Shown here: in pieces, positions 1-16,704 of the stretch
Numbering within the stretch: position 1 is the stretch's first letter
Layout of the letters: each line of letters starts with the position of its first letter
Source: a virus
Lineage: Duplodnaviria; Heunggongvirae; Uroviricota; Caudoviricetes
IMG/VR virus record: IMGVR_UViG_2541047712_000007
DNA length: 16,704 bases
Strand: one strand, 5' to 3'
Program-made: the position numbers and the translations under genes
Notes under the pieces: generated by a model
Told to the model about the DNA's origin: nothing
The model's input: the letters and a program-made list of their open reading frames with translations, nothing else
The model's database searches: none

Positions 1-1461
1 ATGAAAAAATTACTGCGTCTTTTTTTCCCGCTCTCGCTGCGGGTACGTTTTCTGTTAGCAACGGCAGCAGTAGTATTGGTGCTTTCGCTTGCCTACGGAA
101 TGGTTGCGCTGATCGGTTATAGCGTCAGTTTCGATAAAACCACGTTTCGGCTGTTACGTGGCGAGAGCAATCTGTTCTATACCCTTGCGAAGTGGGAAAA
201 CAATAAGTTGCATGTCGAGTTACCCGAAAATATCGACAAGCAAAGCCCCACTATGACGCTAATTTATGATGAGAACGGGCAGCTTTTATGGGCGCAACGT
301 GACGTGCCCTGGCTGATGAAGATGATCCAGCCTGACTGGCTGAAATCGAATGGTTTTCATGAAATTGAAGCGGATGTTAACGATACCAGCCTCTTGCTGA
401 GTGGAGATCATTCGATACAGCAACAGTTGCAGGAAGTGCGGGAAGATGATGACGACGCGGAGATGACCCACTCGGTGGCGGTAAACGTCTACCCGGCAAC
501 ATCGCGGATGCCAAAGTTGACCATTGTGGTGGTGGATACCATTCCGGTGGAGCTAAAAAGTTCCTATATGGTCTGGAGCTGGTTTATCTATGTGCTCTCA
601 GCCAATCTGCTGTTAGTGATCCCGCTGCTGTGGGTCGCCGCCTGGTGGAGTTTACGCCCCATCGAAGCCCTGGCAAAAGAAGTCCGCGAACTGGAAGAAC
701 ATAACCGCGAATTGCTCAATCCAGCCACAACGCGAGAACTGACCAGTCTGGTACGAAACCTGAACCGATTGTTAAAAAGTGAACGCGAACGTTACGACAA
801 ATATCGTACGACGCTCACCGACCTGACCCATAGTCTGAAAACGCCACTGGCGGTGCTGCAAAGTACGCTGCGTTCTCTGCGTAGTGAGAAGATGAGCGTC
901 AGTGATGCTGAACCGGTAATGCTGGAGCAAATCAGCCGCATTTCACAGCAAATTGGCTACTACCTGCATCGTGCCAGTATGCGCGGCGGGACATTGCTCA
1001 GCCGCGAGCTGCATCCGGTCGCCCCACTGCTGGACAATCTCACCTCGGCGCTGAACAAAGTGTATCAACGCAAAGGGGTCAATATCTCTCTCGATATTTC
1101 GCCAGAGATCAGCTTTGTCGGTGAGCAAAACGATTTTGTCGAGGTGATGGGCAACGTGCTGGATAATGCCTGTAAATATTGCCTCGAGTTTGTCGAAATT
1201 TCTGCAAGGCAAACCGACGAGCATCTCTATATTGTGGTCGAGGATGATGGCCCCGGTATTCCATTAAGCAAGCGAGAGGTCATTTTCGACCGTGGTCAAC
1301 GGGTTGATACTTTACGCCCTGGGCAAGGTGTAGGGCTGGCGGTAGCCCGCGAAATCACCGAGCAATATGAGGGTAAAATCGTCGCCGGAGAGAGCATGCT
1401 GGGCGGTGCGCGGATGGAGGTGATTTTTGGTCGCCAGCATTCTGCGCCGAAAGATGAATAA
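1..1461 (+). CDS. phoQ: Sensor histidine kinase PhoQ (complete, 486 aa)
   Basis: Full-length ORF. Two hydrophobic segments flank a periplasmic domain with an acidic patch ([10 protein letters not shown]). H-box [13 protein letters not shown] and ATP-binding boxes ([25 protein letters not shown]) are present. The sequence matches E. coli PhoQ as I remember it. Confidence 0.97.
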
Positions 1462-1896
1462 ATATGTCCTTTTATCACCACAGCAAGGCAACCCATTGAT
1501 TTAATTAAACAACCCACACTGCAAAAAGTGCTAAAAACAGCAAATTGACTACACCATTAACTACACCGTTCGGTGCACTGTATGAAACAACGTGGAACAA
1601 ATAGACACAAGAAATATACAGGCGGGTAATCTTTCCAGGGGGAAGCGCACCAATTCATGAGGGGCGTTAATGTCGATATGGGGATCCCCATAACGGGGCT
1701 ACCGGATTTTTTTTCCGGTTAACTGTTAATCAGGCTGGTGGGTTTTACCTGTTCGGTAGGTGTTATGATTATCGTAATACCTTTCCCCCAGTGGGGTAAA
1801 AGCTCCAACCGTAACGATGTTCGTTGTGGTTGCCTTGATGGTCTGCGTGGTCATTATGACCATTCCCAAAAACAACATATTCGTTGTTTTTCTGTG

Positions 1897-2350
1897 CCCC
1901 GACCTCCTCAAATTGAGGAGGTCGAAAGTATCAACCAGTTACCGCGCCGACTTCCTCAAATTGAGGTTCCCGAAAATATCAGCGGGTTAACGATCAAACT
2001 GGCGAGTAATTAAACTGCGAAAATTTCGCATGTGAGGGATGTAGTCGGCGCAATTTTGCGCTTTGCTTTAATCTCAGTAAGTTACCGCGCCAACTTCCAC
2101 AGTCTGTGGAAATTGGGAAGAATCAACGGTTTAGGCCTTAATCATCTGCGTAATCATAAGTAATCATAATGTTCATTCAGCCACGCAATTTTGCGTTATC
2201 GGGAATATCAGCAAGTTACCGCGCCGGATTCCGCCAATGGCTGTTTCCGAAAGAATCAACGGGTTAGGCTGGTTTCCCCGATGTTCGCCGCTGGCGAATT
2301 TCGAAAATATCAACCAGTTACCGCCGCAACCGCTCCGGCTTCTTCCAGTG
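1897..2350. repeat. Degenerate direct-repeat array: four units of conserved box, 24-28 bp variable hairpin-prone segment, second conserved box
   Basis: Left boxes aaagtatcaaccagttaccgcgcc (1925-1948), tcagtaagttaccgcgcc (2075-2092), tatcagcaagttaccgcgcc (2206-2225), aaaatatcaaccagttaccgccgc (2303-2326). Right boxes aaaatatcagcgggttaacg (1973-1992), aagaatcaacggtttaggcc (2118-2137), aaagaatcaacgggttaggc (2250-2269). A perfect 9-bp-stem hairpin gacctcctcAAATTgaggaggtc sits at 1901-1923. Spacers carry near-palindromes gcgaaaatttcgc / gcgcaattttgcgc. Confidence 0.65.
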
Positions 2351-2599
2351 GTACGTTATTTTTTCTTTCTCCCGATGCAGTTCAACGCGGCGATTGTAGG
2401 CCAGCATTTCAAGAACGCGGATCCGTATGTTGCGCATATCAACATCATTAAGCTGGATACCATCACGGCACATCACCTCAGCAACAACACGCGCATAATT
2501 TTCGGCTGTCACGCTGTCCGGCTGCGTGGTCTGTTCGTCAGCCTGCTGGCTGATTCCAGATACGCGGCGGATTAATCCCAGTAGTTCGGCTTCTGTCAT
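2318..2599 (-). CDS. Hypothetical protein (93 aa), last gene of the packaging operon
   Basis: ATG at 2599 with a GAGG Shine-Dalgarno about 9 nt upstream, 13 nt after the TerL stop. Helix-rich translation. Its last 13 codons lie inside repeat unit 4. No family recognised. Confidence 0.5.
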   Translation of the reverse strand: MTEAELLGLIRRVSGISQQADEQTTQPDSVTAENYARVVAEVMCRDGIQLNDVDMRNIRIRVLEMLAYNRRVELHREKEKITYHWKKPERLRR

Positions 2600-2612: not shown

Positions 2613-4274
2613 TTACACCCCGCTGAATTCTTCCAGTTTCTGGCGGTGGCTGTCGCTTATATCAAAAGCAAAATCCTCATGCTCTGCCTGGAATGTACCA
2701 AACGCCATCAGTGCCGCCACGCTCGGGTCTATCTTGTTCGGTGATTTTTTCTTGTTCGGCTTGATATTGGCGTTCGCGTCACTCTGCATCACGACGTTAC
2801 TCATCGACCAGGACAACACCGGATCGCCACGATGCACAATCACCCTGCGGTTAACAAAAACTTCGAACGATTTCGCCGCCGGACTGAATCTGAGGTAGGT
2901 TTGCGGGAACGGCTCCACCTCAAAACCTGCCCCCTGTAATTGCGTTCTGAGATGCGTGGCGTTCCACGTATCAAAGCCCACCAGCCTGATATGAAATTTC
3001 TCCGCGTCCTGCATGATGTCATCTCTGATCCGGTCGTAATCAATGCAGTCGCCAGGCGTTGTGCGTATCCAGCCCGCTTTAGCCCACTGACGATAGACAG
3101 CGCGGTTTTTATTGGCGGGGTTCTGTAGCTGGAACTCCGGCAGATAATGACGGGAAATCAGCATAATGGTTTTACCGACCGGAAAGGCATAGCATACGCT
3201 GGAAATATCGCTGGTTGATGATAAATCCAGCCCCGCGTAACACTCCTGGCCGTGTAAATCTTCCTCCGTGAACGTTCCGGCACACTCAGCCCATGCGCCG
3301 TTACCCATCCACGGGGTAGCCCCCTGGCACCAGATATTAAATCGCTTTGTCATCATCTCCACCCACTGCGACGGTATTCCCCGCGCTTTCTGGATGGTTG
3401 AGGCCAGTTTTTCACGATCGACGGAAACATCGATATTGGGATTCGCCTTTATCCACATCGCCGGATCGTCAACCTCGCTTTCATCATCCAGCTCGTAAAT
3501 CAGCACGAACATGGATTCGTTCACCTCTTCACCATCCAGTATCTGGCAGCAATAGTCGTAGTGTTGTTTACAGGCTGAAACAACGTTGCTCCCCGATGTG
3601 GTGATGGCAAATAACAGCCCCTCCGGACGCGCCCCCATTCCCAGTTCAAGCGCGGAATAAACCCCGTTGTCAGGGTGCAGGTGATATTCATCCACAATGG
3701 CAAGACTCGGGTTTGTACCTTCAATGGTTGCCGCTTTTGCTGCCAGCGGCTTTAACAGGCTGTTGCTTTTCGGGTGTATCACCTTATGCGCCTGAATATT
3801 CACTCTCTTGCGTAACGGTCGGGATAAAAGGCACATCTGACGCGCATCATCAAAAACGATCCGCGCCTGGTCGCGGCTCACCGCTGCGGTGTAAATATCC
3901 TGCTGCCCGTTCTCCATAATCAAAAACCAGTTAGCCAGAATCGCGGCTGTCGTGGATTTCGCATTTTTGCGCGGCACTTCGATAAAGGCGCTCGTGTATT
4001 TGCGCCTTCCGGTGGCCTTAACCTTAAAGCCGAGGATGCACGCAAAGGCAAACTGCTGCCACGGTTCCAGCTCAATGGGTCTTCCACGCATCGGCCCTTT
4101 TACGTGCGGGCACACCCTGGAAAAGGCAATAAACCGCTCAACAACCTCACGATCGAACATGTAAAGGGGGTTTTCAAGGTCCGAAAAGTATCGTTCAACG
4201 GTCTGTTTCAGCCGTTTACAGGCCGGAATCTTGCCCGTTTTTACGTCTTCTGCGTACTTATTCCAGGCGGTCAA
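2613..4274 (-). CDS. terL: Terminase large subunit (553 aa)
   Basis: N-terminus TAWNKYAEDVKTGKIPACKRLKQTVERY is typical of TerL. Size, and position immediately after TerS with a 17-nt overlap, fit. The first codon at 4272-4274 is TTG (GAGGA upstream), so the exact start is uncertain. Confidence 0.92.
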   Translation of the reverse strand: MTAWNKYAEDVKTGKIPACKRLKQTVERYFSDLENPLYMFDREVVERFIAFSRVCPHVKGPMRGRPIELEPWQQFAFACILGFKVKATGRRKYTSAFIEVPRKNAKSTTAAILANWFLIMENGQQDIYTAAVSRDQARIVFDDARQMCLLSRPLRKRVNIQAHKVIHPKSNSLLKPLAAKAATIEGTNPSLAIVDEYHLHPDNGVYSALELGMGARPEGLLFAITTSGSNVVSACKQHYDYCCQILDGEEVNESMFVLIYELDDESEVDDPAMWIKANPNIDVSVDREKLASTIQKARGIPSQWVEMMTKRFNIWCQGATPWMGNGAWAECAGTFTEEDLHGQECYAGLDLSSTSDISSVCYAFPVGKTIMLISRHYLPEFQLQNPANKNRAVYRQWAKAGWIRTTPGDCIDYDRIRDDIMQDAEKFHIRLVGFDTWNATHLRTQLQGAGFEVEPFPQTYLRFSPAAKSFEVFVNRRVIVHRGDPVLSWSMSNVVMQSDANANIKPNKKKSPNKIDPSVAALMAFGTFQAEHEDFAFDISDSHRQKLEEFSGV

Positions 4275-7796: not shown

Positions 7797-8954
7797 TTAA
7801 TCGTCGTCCTGTGGCAGTTCCAGAATCTTGATCGCGTTCGAATCCACCACGCCACCGCCTAAATATTTCTGCGTGAAAATTTTGATGAAGCCCGGCTCTG
7901 TGAGGTTGTCCGGTCTGGTGCGAACACCTGTTTCGTGATCAACAATGTAGTAACCGCGTTTGAAGTCACCCAGGGCAATAACGTTATCAGGCATAAACTC
8001 CAGATATTCGACCGGAAGGCCCAGCAACGTATCAGGATCACCCGCCTGTAAACGGTCGCGCCAGATGTAATCACCGTTCGCGTTCTTCACCTTCTGAAGT
8101 TTTGCCGCCGTCGTGGAGTTAACCACCCAGACCGCGTTTTTGCGGTATTTTTTACGTAATGCAAATTTCAGGTCGATCAGCGGGTCCGCAGATGTCCACG
8201 CCAGAGATTCGGAAGGTTTAATTACCTGCAACGTACCAAAATCACGCTCTTTGTCGTTCTTCTCTGCACGGGGTACGGATAAAAAACCTTTTGCTTTTTT
8301 GTCACCGTCGCCCACAACCAGATCGCTTTCTTCGGTTTCCGTGAAGGTGTCGCCAATCTCACCCGTCAGCCATGAAAGGATGTCCACATCGGAAAAATCC
8401 ACGATTTCCTGTGTGGTGCGCGGGTACGCATAGACCGGATACAGCTTAATGCTCACCTCGTTAATCTGCGGGGTGCTGGTCTGTTCGCGTGTCTTACCCT
8501 CTTCACCGTGGTTAACGGTCGCACCGCCAGCGGAAACAAGCTGCTTAAACTCGTTGCTGCTGATTTTCTTCACGGTACAGATGCGGCGCATGGTGGATTC
8601 ATCCGTCAGCATTCGCATGATTTCGGTGTTCAGTTCGGGGATAACGGTATAACCACCATCAGCGGGAACGCCTGTACTTAATGCGCGGGTTTCACCTGTC
8701 AGAATGTAGTTGCGTAGTTCTGCGGGGTCAGTGGTCTGGCTGCTTTTACCTGGCTTGCTGCGCTCTTCGTCTGCAATGGCTTCAAGGCGGGAAATGTCTT
8801 TATCGAGGGATTCAGCTTTAGCGCGTAATTCGTCAAATTTTGCGCCCTCAGCATCGTTAAGACTGCGGTTTTCTTTTTCCGCGTTCTCCAGCATGTCGCG
8901 CATCTGATTTTTAATGGCGGTTTTCTGCTGGCGTAATTCGATTATTCTCGGCAT
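7797..8954 (-). CDS. Major capsid protein, HK97 fold, with N-terminal coiled-coil delta/scaffold-like domain (385 aa from the ATG at 8954)
   Basis: HK97-family capsid-like C-terminal two thirds. The N-terminal roughly 90 aa are charged and heptad-like, and no separate scaffold gene exists. ATG at 8954 with AGGA upstream; the ORF track extends to a GTG at 9002. Confidence 0.92.
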   Translation of the reverse strand: MPRIIELRQQKTAIKNQMRDMLENAEKENRSLNDAEGAKFDELRAKAESLDKDISRLEAIADEERSKPGKSSQTTDPAELRNYILTGETRALSTGVPADGGYTVIPELNTEIMRMLTDESTMRRICTVKKISSNEFKQLVSAGGATVNHGEEGKTREQTSTPQINEVSIKLYPVYAYPRTTQEIVDFSDVDILSWLTGEIGDTFTETEESDLVVGDGDKKAKGFLSVPRAEKNDKERDFGTLQVIKPSESLAWTSADPLIDLKFALRKKYRKNAVWVVNSTTAAKLQKVKNANGDYIWRDRLQAGDPDTLLGLPVEYLEFMPDNVIALGDFKRGYYIVDHETGVRTRPDNLTEPGFIKIFTQKYLGGGVVDSNAIKILELPQDDD

Positions 8955-9210
8955 AAAAAAAGTCCTGGGGTTAAGTAAGGAACTCCAGGACGCGGCAAAC
9001 ACTCAACCGTTTTTCATAAGGAAATCAGTAATCGCACCGATCGTTTTCCCGCCTGGTAATGAATATTGGCGAGCACATTAACAGGCGGGAAAATGGCCCC
9101 AGCGTCCTGGCACCACGGGCGAGAATAATCATGATTCAGGTCGGGTAAAATATGCCGTTCCGGTCAGCGAGCAACGTGGAACAACCACGAACAAATAATT
9201 TACAAAACAT

Positions 9211-9234
9211 GACAAAAAGCCGGATTGCTCCGGC
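9211..9234 (-). terminator. Rho-independent terminator ending the early/replication operon
   Basis: Minus-strand hairpin gccgga-GCAA-tccggc (GNRA loop; 9219-9234) followed by uuuuugucauguuuug, immediately after the stop at 9242. Confidence 0.7.
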
Positions 9235-9241
9235 TGTGTGA

Positions 9242-10210: not shown

Positions 10211-10254
10211 ATTTATTTTTACCCCCTCGTTTAAAAAGTTTTGAGTTGTGCCTC

Positions 10255-10490
10255 CCCTTGTCTACCTTATCTACCTTACTGGCTCTCATGCCAGTAATGG
10301 CGCGGCTTTCAGCGGGGTAGAGTGCTTTTATCCACTATCTACCCCGTGTCTACCTCCCTGTCTGATTCAGGTAAAATCAGGTAGAGAGGGTAGATAGTGG
10401 GTAGACAGTAAAAAAAGGCTATCTACCTAACTTAATGCACTGAATTAAATGTATTTTTCTTTACTCAGGTAGACAGGGTAGACAGCAATT
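10255..10490. repeat. Iteron-type replication origin
   Basis: At least 11 copies of the 7-mer GGTAGA(C/G/T) in both orientations (for example tgtctaccttatctacc 10259-10275, ggtagagagggtagatagtgggtagacag 10380-10408, caggtagacagggtagacag 10466-10485), interspersed with A/T tracts, directly 3' of the primase gene. Confidence 0.75.
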
Positions 10491-10498
10491 ACAAAAAA

Positions 10499-12253
10499 TT
10501 ATAAAAACGCGTCGCACTCGTCTGTTGTTATTGCGTTAGTCTGCGTTACTCCCTTAACTTTCCGCGTAATATATTCATGTCCGTAAACTTTCGCGGCTGG
10601 CTTCATAGCCTTGCCAAAGTCATTTACGTTTAGCGGTTTGCTCCTGCCTGCGTACGCCATAAACGCCAGATAGACGCGGTAAAGACTGTTTCTGGTCGTG
10701 TACTTCACTGAATCGCCACCGCCGCCCATCATCAGGCCGCGTGCTTCCTCCAGAAAATTCAGGAACTGGCAAAACTCAATAACCGGATCCGTCTGTTGCT
10801 TTATTGCCAGAGCTTCATCACCGTCACGCTGTTCCAGTAGTAAAGCCCTCGCCTTCTCAGGGTCGGTAAAGTTCGCCAGCAATCGGCGGATAATGACAGG
10901 GATTTCAGCCGCGATCTTTTCCGGTAGCTCCCTGTCTTTTTCGGCCTCACTGACGATATTGTCGAAACGGAAAATCACGCGACGACGTGCCACACCTCCG
11001 GCCCGTTCGGTGAATATCATCGGGTTATTGTTGGTCGCCAGCACCACCGCCCTGATTACAGCCGTGAAACGCTTTTCGTATTTCGGGTTAATTTCCACGG
11101 GGTCACCGCCCGTGATTTTCTTGATGCCCGTTCCTTCGCCTGTATATTTCGGCTGGTCAGCCAGGACGATAAGACGACTCCCGACAACCTGCGCACGTCC
11201 ACCAGCATCATCAAGCGATGTCATTTCAGCGCTTACCGTGTTCTGTTTCCCTGCCAGAAGGCTGGCTATGTGTGTGAATGTACTTTTACCGCTCCCGCCG
11301 TCTCCGGTGGCCTCAATAAACATCTGCCAGTCGTACCGGTTCGCCATAATCATGTACAGCGCGGCACATATACGCATCATCTTGCGCGGGTCTTTTCCGG
11401 CTGCGTGCTCAAGCCATTTATGAAAGTTTGGCGCGTTATCGCGGATGTTCTCCCCTGGTGCTGGTGGCGTGTACTCAATGCCGTTGTGCGTGGTGATCCA
11501 GTTCTCCGGCGTGTGCGGGGAAAATTCCCCCGTTTTCAGGTCAAGCGCACCATTGGCGAACGGCAGCAAATCGCCGGACGGCTCGCCCATTGGTTCGGCA
11601 ATAACTTTTAACGCTTCCACGGCGTTATTGATTACGCGCTTGCTGAAAGTGGCCCTGTGCTCTGAATAGATCGCCACCATTTCGCGGCTAAGTTCCATTG
11701 TGCTGACCGGACACCATACCCCGCCGCGCCATACGTGAACGATTTCACTTTCAGGATGTACGCAAACGCCATCAAAGCGATCGGCAAGCAGCTGCGCGCG
11801 CTCACTGTCCGCCATCTGCGAAAGTTGCGCCTTTTGCTTTACCGGAAGCTCAATGACCAGACCATCAGAAAGATTCTGGCGCTCACGGGCCAGATATTCG
11901 CGCCAGTTCTCCACCTTCTGACCGTGCATACCCTCAGGATAAAAATTTGCATCCTGTACGCCTGCCGCCGCCAGCTTCTGGCCAATCGCCTTTATCATTA
12001 CTGGCGCAAGATATCCGGCCCTGAATATGCGCACGGATTTTCTGCCTTCCGGCACAATTTGCAGCTTATCCAGTTCTGATAACTGCTGCTCCCCAAGCCA
12101 CACAGGAGGCTCATTATCTCCGGCCATACGCGCATCATGTTCCTGCCATTGTTTCGCGTGTGCCCAGGCATCACTACCCGCAAAAATAATGACTTCTGTT
12201 CCTTTGTGTTTTATGCCGCGTGACTGCTGTTTTACGTTCGGTGCCAGTTTCAT
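10499..12253 (-). CDS. P4-family primase / SF3-type helicase replication protein (584 aa)
   Basis: Walker A motif TGDGGSGKSTF in the C-terminal half, size, and the position upstream of the iteron origin. ATG overlaps the upstream stop (ATGA). Confidence 0.9.
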   Translation of the reverse strand: MKLAPNVKQQSRGIKHKGTEVIIFAGSDAWAHAKQWQEHDARMAGDNEPPVWLGEQQLSELDKLQIVPEGRKSVRIFRAGYLAPVMIKAIGQKLAAAGVQDANFYPEGMHGQKVENWREYLARERQNLSDGLVIELPVKQKAQLSQMADSERAQLLADRFDGVCVHPESEIVHVWRGGVWCPVSTMELSREMVAIYSEHRATFSKRVINNAVEALKVIAEPMGEPSGDLLPFANGALDLKTGEFSPHTPENWITTHNGIEYTPPAPGENIRDNAPNFHKWLEHAAGKDPRKMMRICAALYMIMANRYDWQMFIEATGDGGSGKSTFTHIASLLAGKQNTVSAEMTSLDDAGGRAQVVGSRLIVLADQPKYTGEGTGIKKITGGDPVEINPKYEKRFTAVIRAVVLATNNNPMIFTERAGGVARRRVIFRFDNIVSEAEKDRELPEKIAAEIPVIIRRLLANFTDPEKARALLLEQRDGDEALAIKQQTDPVIEFCQFLNFLEEARGLMMGGGGDSVKYTTRNSLYRVYLAFMAYAGRSKPLNVNDFGKAMKPAAKVYGHEYITRKVKGVTQTNAITTDECDAFL

Positions 12254-13369: not shown

Positions 13370-13586
13370 GGTGCACCTCCTGCACATCAGCCATGATAAT
13401 TTTTCCGGCCTTATCCAGTGCCTGATCGGCTTTTAGCTGCACAAATGCTAAATAATGGAAGATGCATTCTGATTCTCTGGCTGCGTGTTTATGCGCCCTG
13501 TCAGCAATAACAGAAATATCAATAAGCGCGTGCATCAGCGTAGTGAGCGCGGCGGCTGCTGCGTCCGGTGTGGTTTTATTGCACAT
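13362..13586 (-). CDS. Hypothetical protein (74 aa)
   Basis: ATG at 13586 with AGGGGGT Shine-Dalgarno. Confidence 0.5.
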   Translation of the reverse strand: MCNKTTPDAAAAALTTLMHALIDISVIADRAHKHAARESECIFHYLAFVQLKADQALDKAGKIIMADVQEVHHA

Positions 13587-13782
13587 GGCCTACCCCCTGG
13601 CGAATACGGGCAGCGAATACCATCACGCAGCCATCAGGAGATTGCTGACGCGCTTCCTGTTCGCTGGTGGCCTCGATGGTAATCACGCGCGGTTGTGCCG
13701 TGCTCAGGGCGATAAAACGCCAGATGTATTTATTCAGGTCGTGCGAATCCCGCCCTTGCGGGTGTGTGGTATGATTTCTCAT
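13576..13782 (-). CDS. Hypothetical protein (68 aa), first gene of the leftward operon
   Basis: ATG at 13782 with GAGG 5 nt upstream. It is the C-terminal, plausible part of a 430-aa track ORF whose remainder is antisense to plus-strand genes and the operator region. Confidence 0.45.
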   Translation of the reverse strand: MRNHTTHPQGRDSHDLNKYIWRFIALSTAQPRVITIEATSEQEARQQSPDGCVMVFAARIRQGVGHVQ

Positions 13783-13878
13783 AGCTACCTCGATACTTTC
13801 GCTATCGTTGGTGGTTAGAAGCCCGGTTAGTGTTAGCGCACTGCCGGGTTTCGTCGTTTCTGCACCTTGCGCCAACAA

Positions 13879-13931
13879 GGTGTTGAACACCAATTTAAAC
13901 CCAGGTGTTAAACACGTCAAGTGTTGAACAC
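13879..13931. promoter_or_regulatory. Triple palindromic operator in a divergent promoter region
   Basis: Three copies of the palindrome GTGTT-N-AACAC: gtgttgaacac (13880-13890), gtgttaaacac (13905-13915), gtgttgaacac (13921-13931), lying between the leftward operon start (13782) and the plus-strand RHH gene (13982). Confidence 0.7.
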
Positions 13932-13981
13932 TTATTTTTTTTCCTGCATACTGCATTTGTTTTTTATGAGGGGTACACCAC

Positions 13982-14161
13982 ATGGCGACAAAAGCAGTAA
14001 ACGCAAAATCACAAACCGTTGCGGCAAGGGTTCCGCATGAAGTTATGAACAATGTTGAGGCGGTAAAAATGCCTGGCGAAAGTACGGGGCAATTTGTTAC
14101 TGCGGCATTAAAACGAGAAGTTGAATATCGCCAGCGGCGCAAGGCCAAAGAACCAGAGTAA
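13982..14161 (+). CDS. Ribbon-helix-helix (Arc/CopG-like) DNA-binding protein, 59 aa; candidate island repressor
   Basis: ATG at 13982 with GAGGGG Shine-Dalgarno. The translation has an RHH-like beta-strand (QTVAARVPHEV) followed by two helices. Below the ORF-track length cutoff; I translated it directly. Confidence 0.6.
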   Translation: MATKAVNAKSQTVAARVPHEVMNNVEAVKMPGESTGQFVTAALKREVEYRQRRKAKEPE

Positions 14162-14218
14162 TCACCATCAGCGCCGTGGTGTGAGGAACTACGGCGCATT
14201 GCTATGCAGGACAACACA

Positions 14219-14392
14219 ATGACCGATAAAGAATTGACCAAAACATTATCACCGGCACGGAAAAGACGGCGCAGAAAGATAGAGCATGAATCAGAAAGAT
14301 TCGCGCCATGTGCTTTTGCCCTTGAGCAATTCCTTAAAGAGTACAGGGAAAAGCGCTCATTGCAGGTATGGCAACGAACTGAACCAGACTGA
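14219..14392 (+). CDS. Hypothetical small basic protein (about 57 aa)
   Basis: ATG at 14219 with AGGA 7 nt upstream (track ORF starts at 14204). Arg-rich (RKRRRRK); followed by a plus-strand terminator. Confidence 0.3.
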   Translation: MTDKELTKTLSPARKRRRRKIEHESERFAPCAFALEQFLKEYREKRSLQVWQRTEPD

Positions 14393-14470
14393 TTGCATTG
14401 CCCACCAGCCGCAAATGTGGCATTGTTGGCAATGCTCATGCGTTGGGGATAACGTGTAGCTTGTGTCGAG

Positions 14471-14500
14471 GGGCCACCGTAGCGGGTGGCCTTTGTTTTG
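14471..14500 (+). terminator. Rho-independent terminator (plus strand)
   Basis: Hairpin ggccacc-gtagcg-ggtggcc followed by tttgttttg. Confidence 0.6.
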
Positions 14501-14594
14501 CCCGTTATTCGGCAATTGTGGCGCTTCTCCACATGGTTGATATAATCCCACTGCTCAGATTCATTTTTTGCGCAGTAGGTTAATTGTTCACAAA

Positions 14595-14626
14595 GGCGCT
14601 CCGGCAACGGGGCGCTTTTTGTTTTT
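14595..14626 (+). terminator. Rho-independent terminator (plus strand), GNRA loop
   Basis: Hairpin gcgctccg-GCAA-cggggcgc (8 bp including one G-U) followed by tttttgttttt. Confidence 0.6.
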
Positions 14627-14920
14627 ATTAGTTTGTAGAAACCTGACTCAGAGATAATGCTCATATTCTGATTGCCGTCAGGGGTGTAAGTTAAATTTAC
14701 TCCCTTTTTATCATCAAACATCTGCAACGCTCTGGCGTTAGCAATATTGGTTTCACTCCCGCCAGTAAGGCCGGAAATAACCGGAATAATTTCGGCAAAA
14801 TTTTGCAGATTCTGTTTTTCAGGACGAACGAAGCCCCGCCCTTGTTCGGGAGAATATCCAGTATTCATGGTTAGATCTCTGTATTAGTGGATGGGTGGCG
14901 GCTGTGTGCCGCCAGCCTGA

Positions 14921-15109
14921 TTAGTGAACTGCCTCGCAGCTGTCCTTCCATGCCAGAACTTCGGATAAAGACCAGCCAACGGAACGACCGCCCAGCTTAC
15001 GCCGTGATGGGAATTGTCCGGCTTTTTCCAGGCGGTACCGACATGAGCGGCTCAGGCCTGTAAGTTGCTGACATTCTTTTTCACGTATAAAGCGATCTGT
15101 GCTTAACAC
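14921..15109 (-). CDS. alpA: AlpA-family transcriptional regulator / excisionase-like protein (62 aa)
   Basis: QQLTGLSRSCRYRLEKAGQFP...KLGGRSVGWSLSEVLAW matches the AlpA winged-helix signature. GTG start at 15109 with AGGGGGAA upstream. Confidence 0.8.
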   Translation of the reverse strand: MLSTDRFIREKECQQLTGLSRSCRYRLEKAGQFPSRRKLGGRSVGWSLSEVLAWKDSCEAVH

Positions 15110-15113
15110 AATT

Positions 15114-15195
15114 CCCCCTTTGTTGTTTCTTAAAGAGTCATTGGGTGGATTATTGGGTTGGGTTGTGTCGGATTGTGTCAGGGTGTTTGTGGAAT
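15114..15195. promoter_or_regulatory. TTGT-rich phased direct repeats immediately upstream of alpA
   Basis: 10-bp register: ttgggtggat / tattgggttg / ggttgtgtcg / gattgtgtca / gggtgtttgt (15141-15190), preceded by tttgttgtttc (15117-15127). Confidence 0.45.
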
Positions 15196-15390: not shown

Positions 15391-15450
15391 CCGTTGTTCC
15401 ATTTTGTTCCTTGTTGTTCGTCGTTGTGTCTCGTTGTTTCACGTTGTCCG
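15391..15450. repeat. Six tandem 10-bp repeats (NCGTTGTNYC) 3' of int
   Basis: ccgttgttcc / attttgttcc / ttgttgttcg / tcgttgtgtc / tcgttgtttc / acgttgtccg in an exact 10-bp register. Confidence 0.6.
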
Positions 15451-15474
15451 CGTCCTGAAAAATCGCAAAAAAAA

Positions 15475-16704
15475 TTATATTTCTCTGGCTATTGGCAATG
15501 TGGTTACGTTTTCATGTGTTCCCGCCAGTATCCCTAACCGCTCCGTCCACATATCCAGCGCGTCACGTTTCGCATCCAGATAACGGGAATGGTTATAGAC
15601 TCGTTGCATCCCTGGCATCTGATGACCTGTAAGCTGCTCCACGACGTGAGGATCCACGCCTAAATCGTTCAGCATCGTTGTAAAGGTGCGCCGGATGTCA
15701 TGCAGTGACCAGTGAGGGTGTTTTAGCCTCCTGTGCGCTAATCTGCCGTACTGCGACACGCTTGTTTCCTGTTTCACTTCCCCCAGCAATAAGCCCGTGT
15801 GCCTGTTCTGCTCCACCAGCTGCGTGACGAACGGCAGTATTGCTTCCGGTATGGGCCGGAATATTGCCACCTTCGTTTTGCTGTGTTCTTTCGGCACGGT
15901 CCAGAGCATTTCGGTAAAATCCCACTCGCTGATCTCCGATAACCTCAGTTCTACCGTCCGGCATCCGAAAACAATCAGGAGGCGGATTAGTGCGACGTAG
16001 TAAGGGGAAAATATTTTTTTGTCCAGTGCCTGCAATAATTCGCCAAGTTCTTTGGTGCTTAAGACGCGCTCGCTTATATCCGGTTTTTTCCCAACGTCCG
16101 CCACACTCATATCATCAAGAACGTTGCTGATTGCATAGCGCCGCCTCCGGCAGAACTTAAGCGCCTGTTTGCACGTCTGTAGCAAGAATCCGGCAGTAAC
16201 AGGCGTTCGCTTTGCCACCTGGTCAAAACAGGCCAGCCAGTGCCGTAGCTCGCATTTATCCAGCGGCATAGCACCAATGTGCTGTATTACGTGATTATTA
16301 AGGCGCTTTTTCAGGGCGGCATAATCCACGCGGTTTTCCTTTGCGTACGACTCAAGCCAGTAGGTGAGCGCATCGCCAACCGTTACCGGCTTTAACGCTT
16401 CCTGTACGGTGTAATTCATTTCATGACGTGGATTTTTCCCCTCTGCCAGCCATGCGCGACACTGGGCGGCTTTTTCCCTGGCTGATTTCAGGCTCAGATC
16501 AGGATAATTTCCCAGCTTAATGCGTTCCGGTGGTGCCCCCCTTCCCGTTCCGGCCCTGTAAGTGAAATACCAGGTTAAAAGGCCACTGGTTGAATGCCTG
16601 ACGCTCAGGTTTCCACCGTCATTAAGAAAGGCTGTTTTTTGGGCGGGTGTGCCGTTGATTTTCCTCAGCTGTGTATCGCTCAGTTTGTTAAGTGCTCTGC
16701 TCAT
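15475..16704 (-). CDS. int: Tyrosine integrase, P4-like family (409 aa)
   Basis: C-terminal catalytic signature LHDIRRTF...GHQMPGMQRVYNHSRY (His-x-x-Arg box plus terminal Tyr) and a long N-terminal arm/core-binding region. Start codon is the last three bases of the window. Confidence 0.93.
   Translation of the reverse strand: MSRALNKLSDTQLRKINGTPAQKTAFLNDGGNLSVRHSTSGLLTWYFTYRAGTGRGAPPERIKLGNYPDLSLKSAREKAAQCRAWLAEGKNPRHEMNYTVQEALKPVTVGDALTYWLESYAKENRVDYAALKKRLNNHVIQHIGAMPLDKCELRHWLACFDQVAKRTPVTAGFLLQTCKQALKFCRRRRYAISNVLDDMSVADVGKKPDISERVLSTKELGELLQALDKKIFSPYYVALIRLLIVFGCRTVELRLSEISEWDFTEMLWTVPKEHSKTKVAIFRPIPEAILPFVTQLVEQNRHTGLLLGEVKQETSVSQYGRLAHRRLKHPHWSLHDIRRTFTTMLNDLGVDPHVVEQLTGHQMPGMQRVYNHSRYLDAKRDALDMWTERLGILAGTHENVTTLPIAREI

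Follow-up and report, generated by a model that had tools for sequence, protein, structure and literature searches.

Within the 16,704-nt stretch of viral DNA analysed here (the window), the 13-mer CAACGTGGAACAA occurs on the plus strand at 1588–1600, near the left end of an integrated island, and again at 9172–9184, upstream of the island's capsid operon. What, if anything, does the left copy do? The initial annotation had noted the identity, which is exact in both places, and proposed that the left copy marks the left att arm or another promoter under the same regulator, while cautioning that a 13-mer match could plausibly arise by chance. Simulation agrees with the caution, as the window holds 13 direct pairs of exact 13-mer repeats and at least one such pair appears in 97% of Markov-2 simulated sequences. 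Repeats of this kind are expected by chance in 16.7 kb, and the 13-mer was therefore dropped as evidence by itself. It is the 10-bp phasing of the surrounding sequence, and not 13-mer identity, that makes the motif non-random. Read on the minus strand from 1611 to 1582, this sequence comprises, as annotated, CTTGTGTCTA TTTGTTCCAC GTTGTTTCAT, three units exactly 10 bp apart with the consensus CGTTGTTCCA (motif B). The same family is found upstream of the capsid operon, after int, next to alpA and in the right att arm. The arrays in the window, and the candidate promoter that one of them overlaps, are:

1582–1611, minus strand: three 10-bp-phased motif B units (CTTGTGTCTA / TTTGTTCCAC / GTTGTTTCAT), probable AlpA operators in the int-distal arm
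9166–9195, minus strand: three phased motif B units (TTTGTTCGTG / GTTGTTCCAC / GTTGCTCGCT) upstream of the capsid-packaging operon, probably an activator site
15140–15191, plus strand: alpA-proximal phased TTG(T/G) units, for example GGTTGTGTCGGATTGTGTCAG, overlapping the candidate alpA promoter
15200→15172, minus strand: candidate alpA promoter, TTGCCA-17-CACAAT
15392–15451, plus strand: six phased motif B units, right after the int stop codon and ~285 bp upstream of alpA

A weight matrix trained solely on the six copies at 15392–15451, and then used to find same-strand pairs 10 bp apart, recovered phased pairs elsewhere in just three places: 1584–1601, 9168–9195 and the right att arm (4 pairs versus 0.26 expected; none of 300 dinucleotide shuffles reached 4). 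The 13-mer also has four degenerate copies at 15394–15446 on the minus strand, and at ≤2 mismatches it has 6 matches versus 0.57 expected, a count reached by none of 200 shuffles. The observation thus holds up, its membership of a phased family making it non-random, and the annotated kinship with the repeats by int and alpA is borne out both by these related copies and by the phased-pair test. The shared 13-mer itself would represent two adjacent near-consensus operators, TTGTTCC-AC-GTTG. Across loci, we extracted 13 distinct arrays of at least four phased units (66 units), ten of them at the int 3′ end with 5–6 units each and two of them right-arm arrays. Their consensus is (C)(G)TTGT(T)(C/T/G)(C)(A/T), in which the invariance of TTGT is built in because the extraction pattern demanded TTGT at a 10-bp period. 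Between islands, the int-3′ arrays differ in the sequence and number of their units, and the TTGT period stays at 10 bp, as extraction required. The arrays are conserved in islands at six att sites, strict de novo detection of phased triplets recovered few in distant capsid-forming islands, and the 15392–15451 array is oriented opposite to the others. Motif B does not match the IHF consensus, and no known RNA or tRNA was found. Replication iterons were considered and rejected, as the repeat in the ori-like region at 10254–10488 is GGTAGAYAG and bears no relation to the TTGT motif. At least ten GGTAGAYAG copies, in both orientations, occupy this region in the gap downstream of the primase gene and are probably replication-origin iterons.

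Whether the left copy belongs to the island or to the host is settled by genomes that lack the island. All 5426 of 5426 complete E. coli genomes match phoQ, and in island-free genomes the match ends at window position 1469, which places the left boundary there and therefore makes 1582–1611 island DNA rather than host DNA of island-free strains. The empty site reads AAATATGCCC|ATACTTCAC (identical to the block in other strains), that is, ...GAATAAATATG(C/T)CC|ATACTTCAC; the left junction reads ...GAATAAATATGTCC|TTTTATCAC and the right junction ...GATAAAATATGTCC|ATACTTCAC, that is, AAATATGTCC|ATACTTCAC. Comparison of these three sequences defines AAATATGTCC as a short identity block common to both junctions and the empty site, and its 1460–1469 copy is overlapped by the phoQ stop codon, TAA (1459–1461). 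The right junction, which is absent from the window, was supplied by E. coli STN0717-11 (L003), which differs from the window at two bases and in which the second AAATATGTCC copy forms the core at 17377–17386. The int promoter and the int-proximal arm fall just past the window end. Measured from the crossover centre, the left array spans +118 to +147 bp, some 120–145 bp inside the left junction. The landmarks of the locus are:

1–1461, plus strand: phoQ, a host gene annotated as phoQ in every matching genome
1460–1469, no strand: att identity block AAATATGTCC, the crossover region at the left, int-distal junction, from the island-free match end and junction comparison
2318–2599, minus strand: orf93
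2613–4274, minus strand: TerL
7797–8954, minus strand: capsid gene, with its ATG at 8954
10499–12253, minus strand: primase gene
14921–15109, minus strand: alpA, encoding a 62-aa Phage_AlpA winged-helix protein
15475–16704, minus strand: int, encoding a tyrosine integrase with an N-terminal Arm-DNA-bind_3 domain

Everything in the window beyond phoQ is mobile island with every gene on the minus strand, inserted between phoQ and roxA directly after the phoQ stop codon and spanning ~15.4 kb. From gene content and size, the island is a capsid-forming PICI (cf-PICI) like EcCIEDL933. It carries int, alpA and a primase-type replication gene, identified by annotation or Pfam, at a dedicated att site that prophages do not use. 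It also encodes ssb and perC together with a full HK97-type head and packaging module (its own capsid, protease, portal, connectors, HNH, TerS and TerL), and tail and lysis genes are absent. The head and packaging genes were taken from the RefSeq annotation of the near-identical L003, with Terminase_4 and HNH confirmed by Pfam. For EcCIEDL933, helper-phage-dependent induction and transfer via phage tails have been reported (10.1101/2022.09.08.507074), and O157:H7 islands are 98–100% identical to the window island over the regions compared. The same phoQ–roxA site is occupied by the classical PICI EcCICFT073 (L101, E. coli CFT073 1377681–1389209), whose AlpA protein, att arms and alpA-upstream arrays are identical to those of the window and whose int–alpA spacer is near-identical. 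The late operon of EcCICFT073 differs from that of the window and has no TTGT array upstream. In the window, 13576–14868 (minus strand) forms a single intact 430-aa ORF without a Pfam match as a whole, which RefSeq divides, in a near-identical genome, into an Icd-like protein and a BRO-N 'pseudogene'.

Both attachment arms contain one co-oriented composite block, in which a doubled ACTACACC (motif A) is followed by a phased motif B array. The block elements are:

1490–1502, minus strand: exact match to the IHF consensus WATCARNNNNTTR (AATCAATGGGTTG), a putative IHF site by consensus match
1548–1567, plus strand: doubled motif A, ACTACACC-ATTA-ACTACACC, with a 12-bp period, probable Int arm-type half-sites in the int-distal arm
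17232–17251, 17257–17296 and 17377–17386 in L003: two copies of motif A, four of motif B and the core, respectively, in the int-proximal arm

In the left arm, a 14-bp gap separates the doubled ACTACACC from the three short direct repeats, which are thus about one helical turn apart and close to a second repeated element; the IHF-consensus match falls between the core and the doubled motif. In the right arm, running from the int ATG to the core, ACTACACC-ATTA-ACTACACC is followed by four minus-strand units, CCTTGTTCCA GCTTGTTTCA CGTTGTAGCC CTTTGTGCAA. The doubled motifs of the reconstructed attP have their midpoints at −139.5 and +93.5 relative to the core centre, the latter being the int-distal arm, and exact ACTACACC copies are found only in the two arms. 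The arm block is present in 1018 of the 5426 E. coli genomes, typically twice per genome, and was found in islands at phoQ–roxA, tqsA, clpS–cspD, smrA and yifB, with the doubled motif A conserved in islands at six att sites. In one island (L024), between-island homology stops right after the third motif B unit, and this end point delimits the functional att site on its outer side. In the clpS–cspD island (L021) the spacers differ, yet three to four TTGTTCG units are found in both arms. In the hpt–gcd island (L005) the capsid-promoter array is kept, and the arms show only weak TTCG-type phasing. The boundary at 1469, the occurrence of AAATATGTCC at both junctions and the co-oriented duplication of the block in the int-proximal arm support the first of the two annotated roles: 1582–1611 marks the int-distal att arm of a cf-PICI.

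Which proteins might read these two motifs? The doubled ACTACACC is a probable Int arm site, a candidate that we assign to Int because it is exclusive to the arms, tracks the arm-binding domain of Int and matches the architecture of helper-embedded (HE) PICIs. The N-terminal arm-binding domain of Int is PF13356 (Arm-DNA-bind_3; E = 5e-18), and the arm motif, repeated on either side of the core, covaries with the integrase. Int residues 29–55 are identical in the window, CFT073 and L021, all three of which carry ACTACACC. The tqsA-type Int has R36K, H37Y, S38L and L42K, and the motif flanks are altered in both of its arms (gtgACTACACCagtgACTACACC). The hpt–gcd island, with an Int that is 48% identical, has GTGATACACC, as GTGATACACCGAGTGATATACC in both arms, and Erwinia and Citrobacter cf-PICIs, with a distant Int, have GGTATCCT, as GGTATCCTATAGGTATCCT in both arms. 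By eye, TAC-core repeats can also be made out in the Erwinia and Citrobacter islands, both in the arms and ahead of the HTH gene and of capsid. In HE-PICI attPs, a tandem 8-mer with a 12-bp period has been described in two co-oriented copies at 81 and 132 bp, and Tommasini et al. (2023) proposed that its four half-sites serve an Int tetramer and did not find the doubled motif in other PICIs (PMC10111431).

The phased array, by comparison of loci, is probably an AlpA operator of the RDF/regulator kind (RDF, recombination directionality factor), an assignment that we make because the array is also present at promoters and tracks the alpA type. The cognate AlpA encoded by the element is a small basic wHTH protein (PF05930, Phage_AlpA; 62 aa), and its AF2 model (pLDDT 88.5) has excisionases as its best PDB matches (8c3t, 8dgl and 1z4h), with TM 0.79/0.85 against GIsul2 Xis and with RdfS and TorI also among the best structural matches. 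The small island ORFs yielded no further Xis-like or HTH protein. Islands with a 62-aa AlpA carry TTGTNNC in the arms and alpA-upstream arrays, and islands with a 69-aa AlpA (58% identical) carry GTTCG at both, with the Int arm-binding core unchanged. Because int and alpA are co-inherited, the two types always occurring together in a search for recombinants among 74 IMG/VR loci and the E. coli loci, covariation cannot cleanly separate Int from AlpA as the motif B binder. The most likely function of 1582–1611 would be cooperative AlpA binding for excision beside Int arm sites.

Published work on relatives bears on this assignment. In EcCICFT073, AlpA without phage activates its own promoter and suffices for int-dependent excision and replication, and Pint is unchanged (PMC6092414); such behaviour would be expected of an RDF that acts directly, and the arms of EcCICFT073, in which AlpA suffices for excision, are identical to those of the window. 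Apl binds att and pR–pL via direct repeats spaced 10–11 bp and needs at least three adjacent sites (PMC7498355), and TorI recognizes GTTCG/GATCG/GTCCG, three such sites with a 10-bp period overlapping the int promoter (PMC2951348). Runs of at least three adjacent direct repeats, spaced by one helical turn and located both at att and at promoters, characterize dual-purpose RDFs such as Apl, Cox, Vis, TorI and RdfS. In PICMI satellites, AlpA is an excisionase and satellite transcription is unchanged (PMC10803314), and dual function is therefore not universal in the AlpA family. CP4-57 AlpA/intA was considered as a direct precedent and dropped; that AlpA shares only 33% identity, and clean TTGT/GTTC phasing could not be seen in the CP4-57 arm. 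We rejected the antiterminator model of Pseudomonas AlpA (21Q-like), a protein of ~140+ aa that forms a ring at the RNA exit channel and uses a single ABE (GGGACG) between −35 and −10 (PMC9371919); the island AlpA is 62 aa and wHTH only, and its sites would be multi-copy phased repeats.

The capsid-upstream copy is the promoter-associated member of the 13-mer pair. Its array covers roughly −33 to −62 relative to a weak candidate promoter of the capsid operon, and it is conserved in cf-PICIs with other int/alpA types (L004, L005 and L021). Two further elements adjoin it:

9196–9207, minus strand: box TTTTGTAAATTAT, immediately upstream of the array
9218–9235, minus strand: intrinsic terminator of the upstream perC-ssb unit

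The terminator ends the perC-ssb unit, and the capsid operon therefore needs its own promoter. When the window, L004, L005 and L010–L013 were compared, the box was kept in cf-PICIs from E. coli, Shigella, Rosenbergiella and Erwinia; the Citrobacter variant is TTTTGTAAATTTT, and Gilliamella has no clear match. Downstream of the box, lineages other than that of the window have a different common leader, GTGGCACTCAGACGTGAGCCGCCAC ... TGGTTTCACGTC, that contains complementary GACGTGA/TCACGTC segments. In place of the TTGTTC array, the Rosenbergiella, Citrobacter and Erwinia islands (L010–L012) have 10-bp-phased GTACCC/TTACCC units. L011 and L012 encode an HTH_17 protein, not Phage_AlpA, and have arms with doubled GGTATCCT next to a tRNA att site. 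These sequences suggest that regulator and operator pairs could be swapped at the capsid promoter across genera. The capsid-operon leader of the window (8945–9165, minus strand) has a predicted fold of −78.7 kcal/mol (z = −4.66 versus shuffles), and its terminal hairpin (GUCCUGG..CCAGGAC, then U7) sequesters the AGGA ribosome-binding site right before the capsid ATG (8954). The hairpin may be a terminator or a translational gate.

We therefore consider that 1582–1611 is the outer int-distal att arm of a cf-PICI, in which AlpA would bind the phased units and Int would bind ACTACACC, with shared AlpA operators coupling excision to late expression, a reading to which we give a probability of about 0.6. 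The island boundary, the duplicated arm block, phasing and enrichment, conservation and the protein families are shown directly, and we infer which protein would bind which motif and how the bending and activation steps might proceed. The four ACTACACC half-sites would be bound by the arm-binding domains of an Int tetramer, and the 62-aa AlpA, acting as the RDF, would bind the phased units cooperatively, head to tail, bending the arms and stabilizing Int on them for excision. AlpA operators next to alpA could mediate autoregulation, and those at about −33 to −62 of the weak capsid-operon promoter could mediate activation. In this way, one helper-induced protein would couple excision to late gene expression. 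Some features run contrary to this explanation: the array is present in both arms and, in the int-distal arm, outside the doubled motif, whereas known RDFs usually occupy one arm, between the Int arm site and the core. The weak arm phasing of the hpt–gcd island, the reversed orientation of the int-3′ array and the PICMI result likewise count against it. A wider proposal, which we hold tentatively and rate somewhat below an even chance, is that the AlpA of E. coli PICIs and cf-PICIs is a bifunctional excisionase/activator with the operator CGTTGTTCCA at 10 bp, which would assemble on the two att arms in a constant register with the doubled Int arm site, build a two-armed, pseudo-symmetric intasome and use the same operator for the capsid operon, other genera having swapped in TTACCC arrays and HTH_17. 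If true, such a two-armed intasome would set these islands apart from lambda, 186 and KplE1, in which the RDF arrangement is one-armed.

Two unlikely alternatives, which we consider equally improbable, assign the phased arrays to a protein other than AlpA. For example, the TTGTTCC units could be Int arm-type sites, with the doubled ACTACACC bound by AlpA or a host factor; the choice between Int and AlpA for the doubled motif was left undecided by the authors of PMC10111431, Int has an Arm-DNA-bind_3 domain, and the units form 10-bp tandem direct repeats in both arms, as do lambda P′1–P′3. The covariation of Int and array flavour would also fit this assignment, int and alpA being co-inherited, but flavour differs between the window and L021 types despite identical Int residues 29–55, whereas ACTACACC is arm-exclusive, changes with the Int N-domain and, with four half-sites, fits a tetramer. 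Moreover, arrays are also present at 9166–9195, at 15392–15451 and next to alpA, 1.2–7.5 kb from the core, and we know of no Int role at such positions. Alternatively, the arrays might be bound by a helper-phage inducer, a host nucleoid protein or an island protein such as PerC, given that perC lies directly upstream of the capsid-operon array, that arrays also lie upstream of alpA and that the helper-phage signal for alpA has not been identified (PMC6092414). Against such a factor, AlpA alone, in the absence of phage, gives autoactivation and excision in EcCICFT073, where the arrays are identical; L004 and L005 keep the capsid array without PerC; and the small island ORFs contain no other HTH or Xis-like protein and the units no IHF-consensus match.

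Still less probable is the second role suggested by the initial annotation, in which 1582–1611 would be a promoter element under the same regulator. The left copy is identical in sequence to part of the capsid-promoter array, but no sigma-70-like promoter was found on either strand of 1440–2400, and no island gene lies downstream of the array in either direction, as the phoQ 3′ end is to its left and non-coding DNA followed by convergent genes to its right. With neither a promoter nor a gene to serve, the 1582–1611 copy is better read as a recombination site than as an operator, and classical PICIs carry the same block amid different flanking DNA. At the bottom of our ranking, by a narrow distance below the promoter element, is chance similarity or a non-functional relic of arm duplication. 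A single exact 13-mer repeat is indeed expected in 16.7 kb, and the arms are clearly homologous, so that the array could be a passenger; yet the phasing is enriched, the arm block recurs in 1018/5426 E. coli genomes, the units are kept while the spacers diverge in L021, and homology ends exactly after the third unit.

The att-arm reading, with AlpA on the phased units, has close parallels among known recombination systems. One is attL of KplE1 (CPS-53) with its TorI and IntS sites (Panis et al. 2010), where a small winged-helix RDF uses short units, three at a 10-bp period, in an att arm (PMC2951348) that overlaps the int promoter, with int facing inward and Int having separate arm-type sites. 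TorI sites, by contrast, have been described solely for the int-proximal arm, and TorI acts as an int repressor; in the island studied here, arrays occupy both arms and distant promoters, and the sister island's AlpA left Pint unchanged. In 186 (Apl), P2 (Cox) and P4 (Vis), one small HTH protein serves direct repeats a helical turn apart at att and far promoters, binding cooperatively and needing about three adjacent units (PMC7498355), an arrangement like that proposed here. Apl and Cox, however, operate a lysis–lysogeny switch and mostly repress, whereas autoactivation and late-operon activation in a satellite would apply here, and the sequence families differ, AlpA belonging to PF05930 with Vis as only a remote relative. 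The doubled motif of HE-PICI attPs, tgTGTATTGCantgTGTATTGCa, likewise consists of co-oriented tandem 8-bp cores with a 12-bp period on both sides of the crossover (PMC10111431), at 81 and 132 bp as compared with 93.5 and 139.5 bp here; its core differs from ACTACACC, and that study describes no adjacent phased array common to promoters. Lambda attP (P1, P2, X1–X1.5–X2, P′1–P′3 and IHF sites) resembles this locus in its heterobivalent Int, its arm sites on both sides of the core, its phased RDF sites beside an arm site and the IHF-like site between core and arm sites. It differs in that Xis sites are confined to a single arm, int is oriented towards the att site, and an activator role of this sort is lacking in Xis. 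Finally, RdfS of ICEMlSymR7A is a wHTH RDF that acts at attP beside an Int arm site and at its own and other promoters (PMC11963761), and its TM against the AlpA model is about 0.66; RdfS has no clear consensus motif and oligomerizes via an extra helix, whereas the motif here is distinct.

More broadly, the switching-on of Gram-negative PICIs is only partly understood, with AlpA's role as excisionase, activator or both at issue, and AlpA is necessary and sufficient for the PICI excision–replication cycle, although its DNA targets are unmapped (PMC6092414, PMC10803314, PMC10111431). Probable AlpA sites such as these are a well-known kind of site that has not yet been mapped in this satellite family, and the phased arrays offer a concrete candidate operator with four testable loci. 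They lie in an element carried in some form by about one in five complete E. coli genomes, and they extend the doubled arm-motif architecture beyond helper-embedded PICIs. Phased arrays are what would be expected of a tyrosine-integrase element with a dual-purpose RDF, and their description should be useful to PICI specialists without being surprising in principle.

Further into the left end, TCGTTGT at 1821 and 1881 and a palindrome around the latter, which the initial annotation had grouped with the phased family, all exist, but their kinship with that family does not hold. None of them passes the phased-pair test. The 1821 copy falls inside a conserved block; of the four other aligned islands, three have TCGTTATGGTTGCC there and the fourth has TCGCTATGGTTGCC, and TTGT is therefore not conserved. 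The palindrome, AAAAACAAC-ATATTC-GTTGTTTTT (1868–1891), lies in a region without conservation even in a near-identical Shigella island. The non-coding block at 1660–1860, which contains a CGATATGGGGATCCCCAT palindrome, a ACCGGATTTTTTTTCCGGTTAAC hairpin, CAGGCTGGTGGG and AACCGTAACG..TCGTTATGGTTGCC, is conserved in aligned cf-PICIs from phoQ–roxA, tqsA and clpS–cspD and in the classical PICI EcCICFT073. A cos/pac element was rejected as an explanation for the motif, as hairpin repeats lie further right (1896–2340) and classical PICIs whose packaging modules differ likewise carry the arm block. In the 1896–2340 segment, directly downstream of the last packaging gene, a ~48-nt unit is repeated four to five times, consisting of AATATCAAC..GTTACCGCGCC and a short perfect hairpin (for example, CGACCTCCTCAA/TTGAGGAGGTCG at 1900–1924); the segment is a candidate cos/terminase-recognition region.
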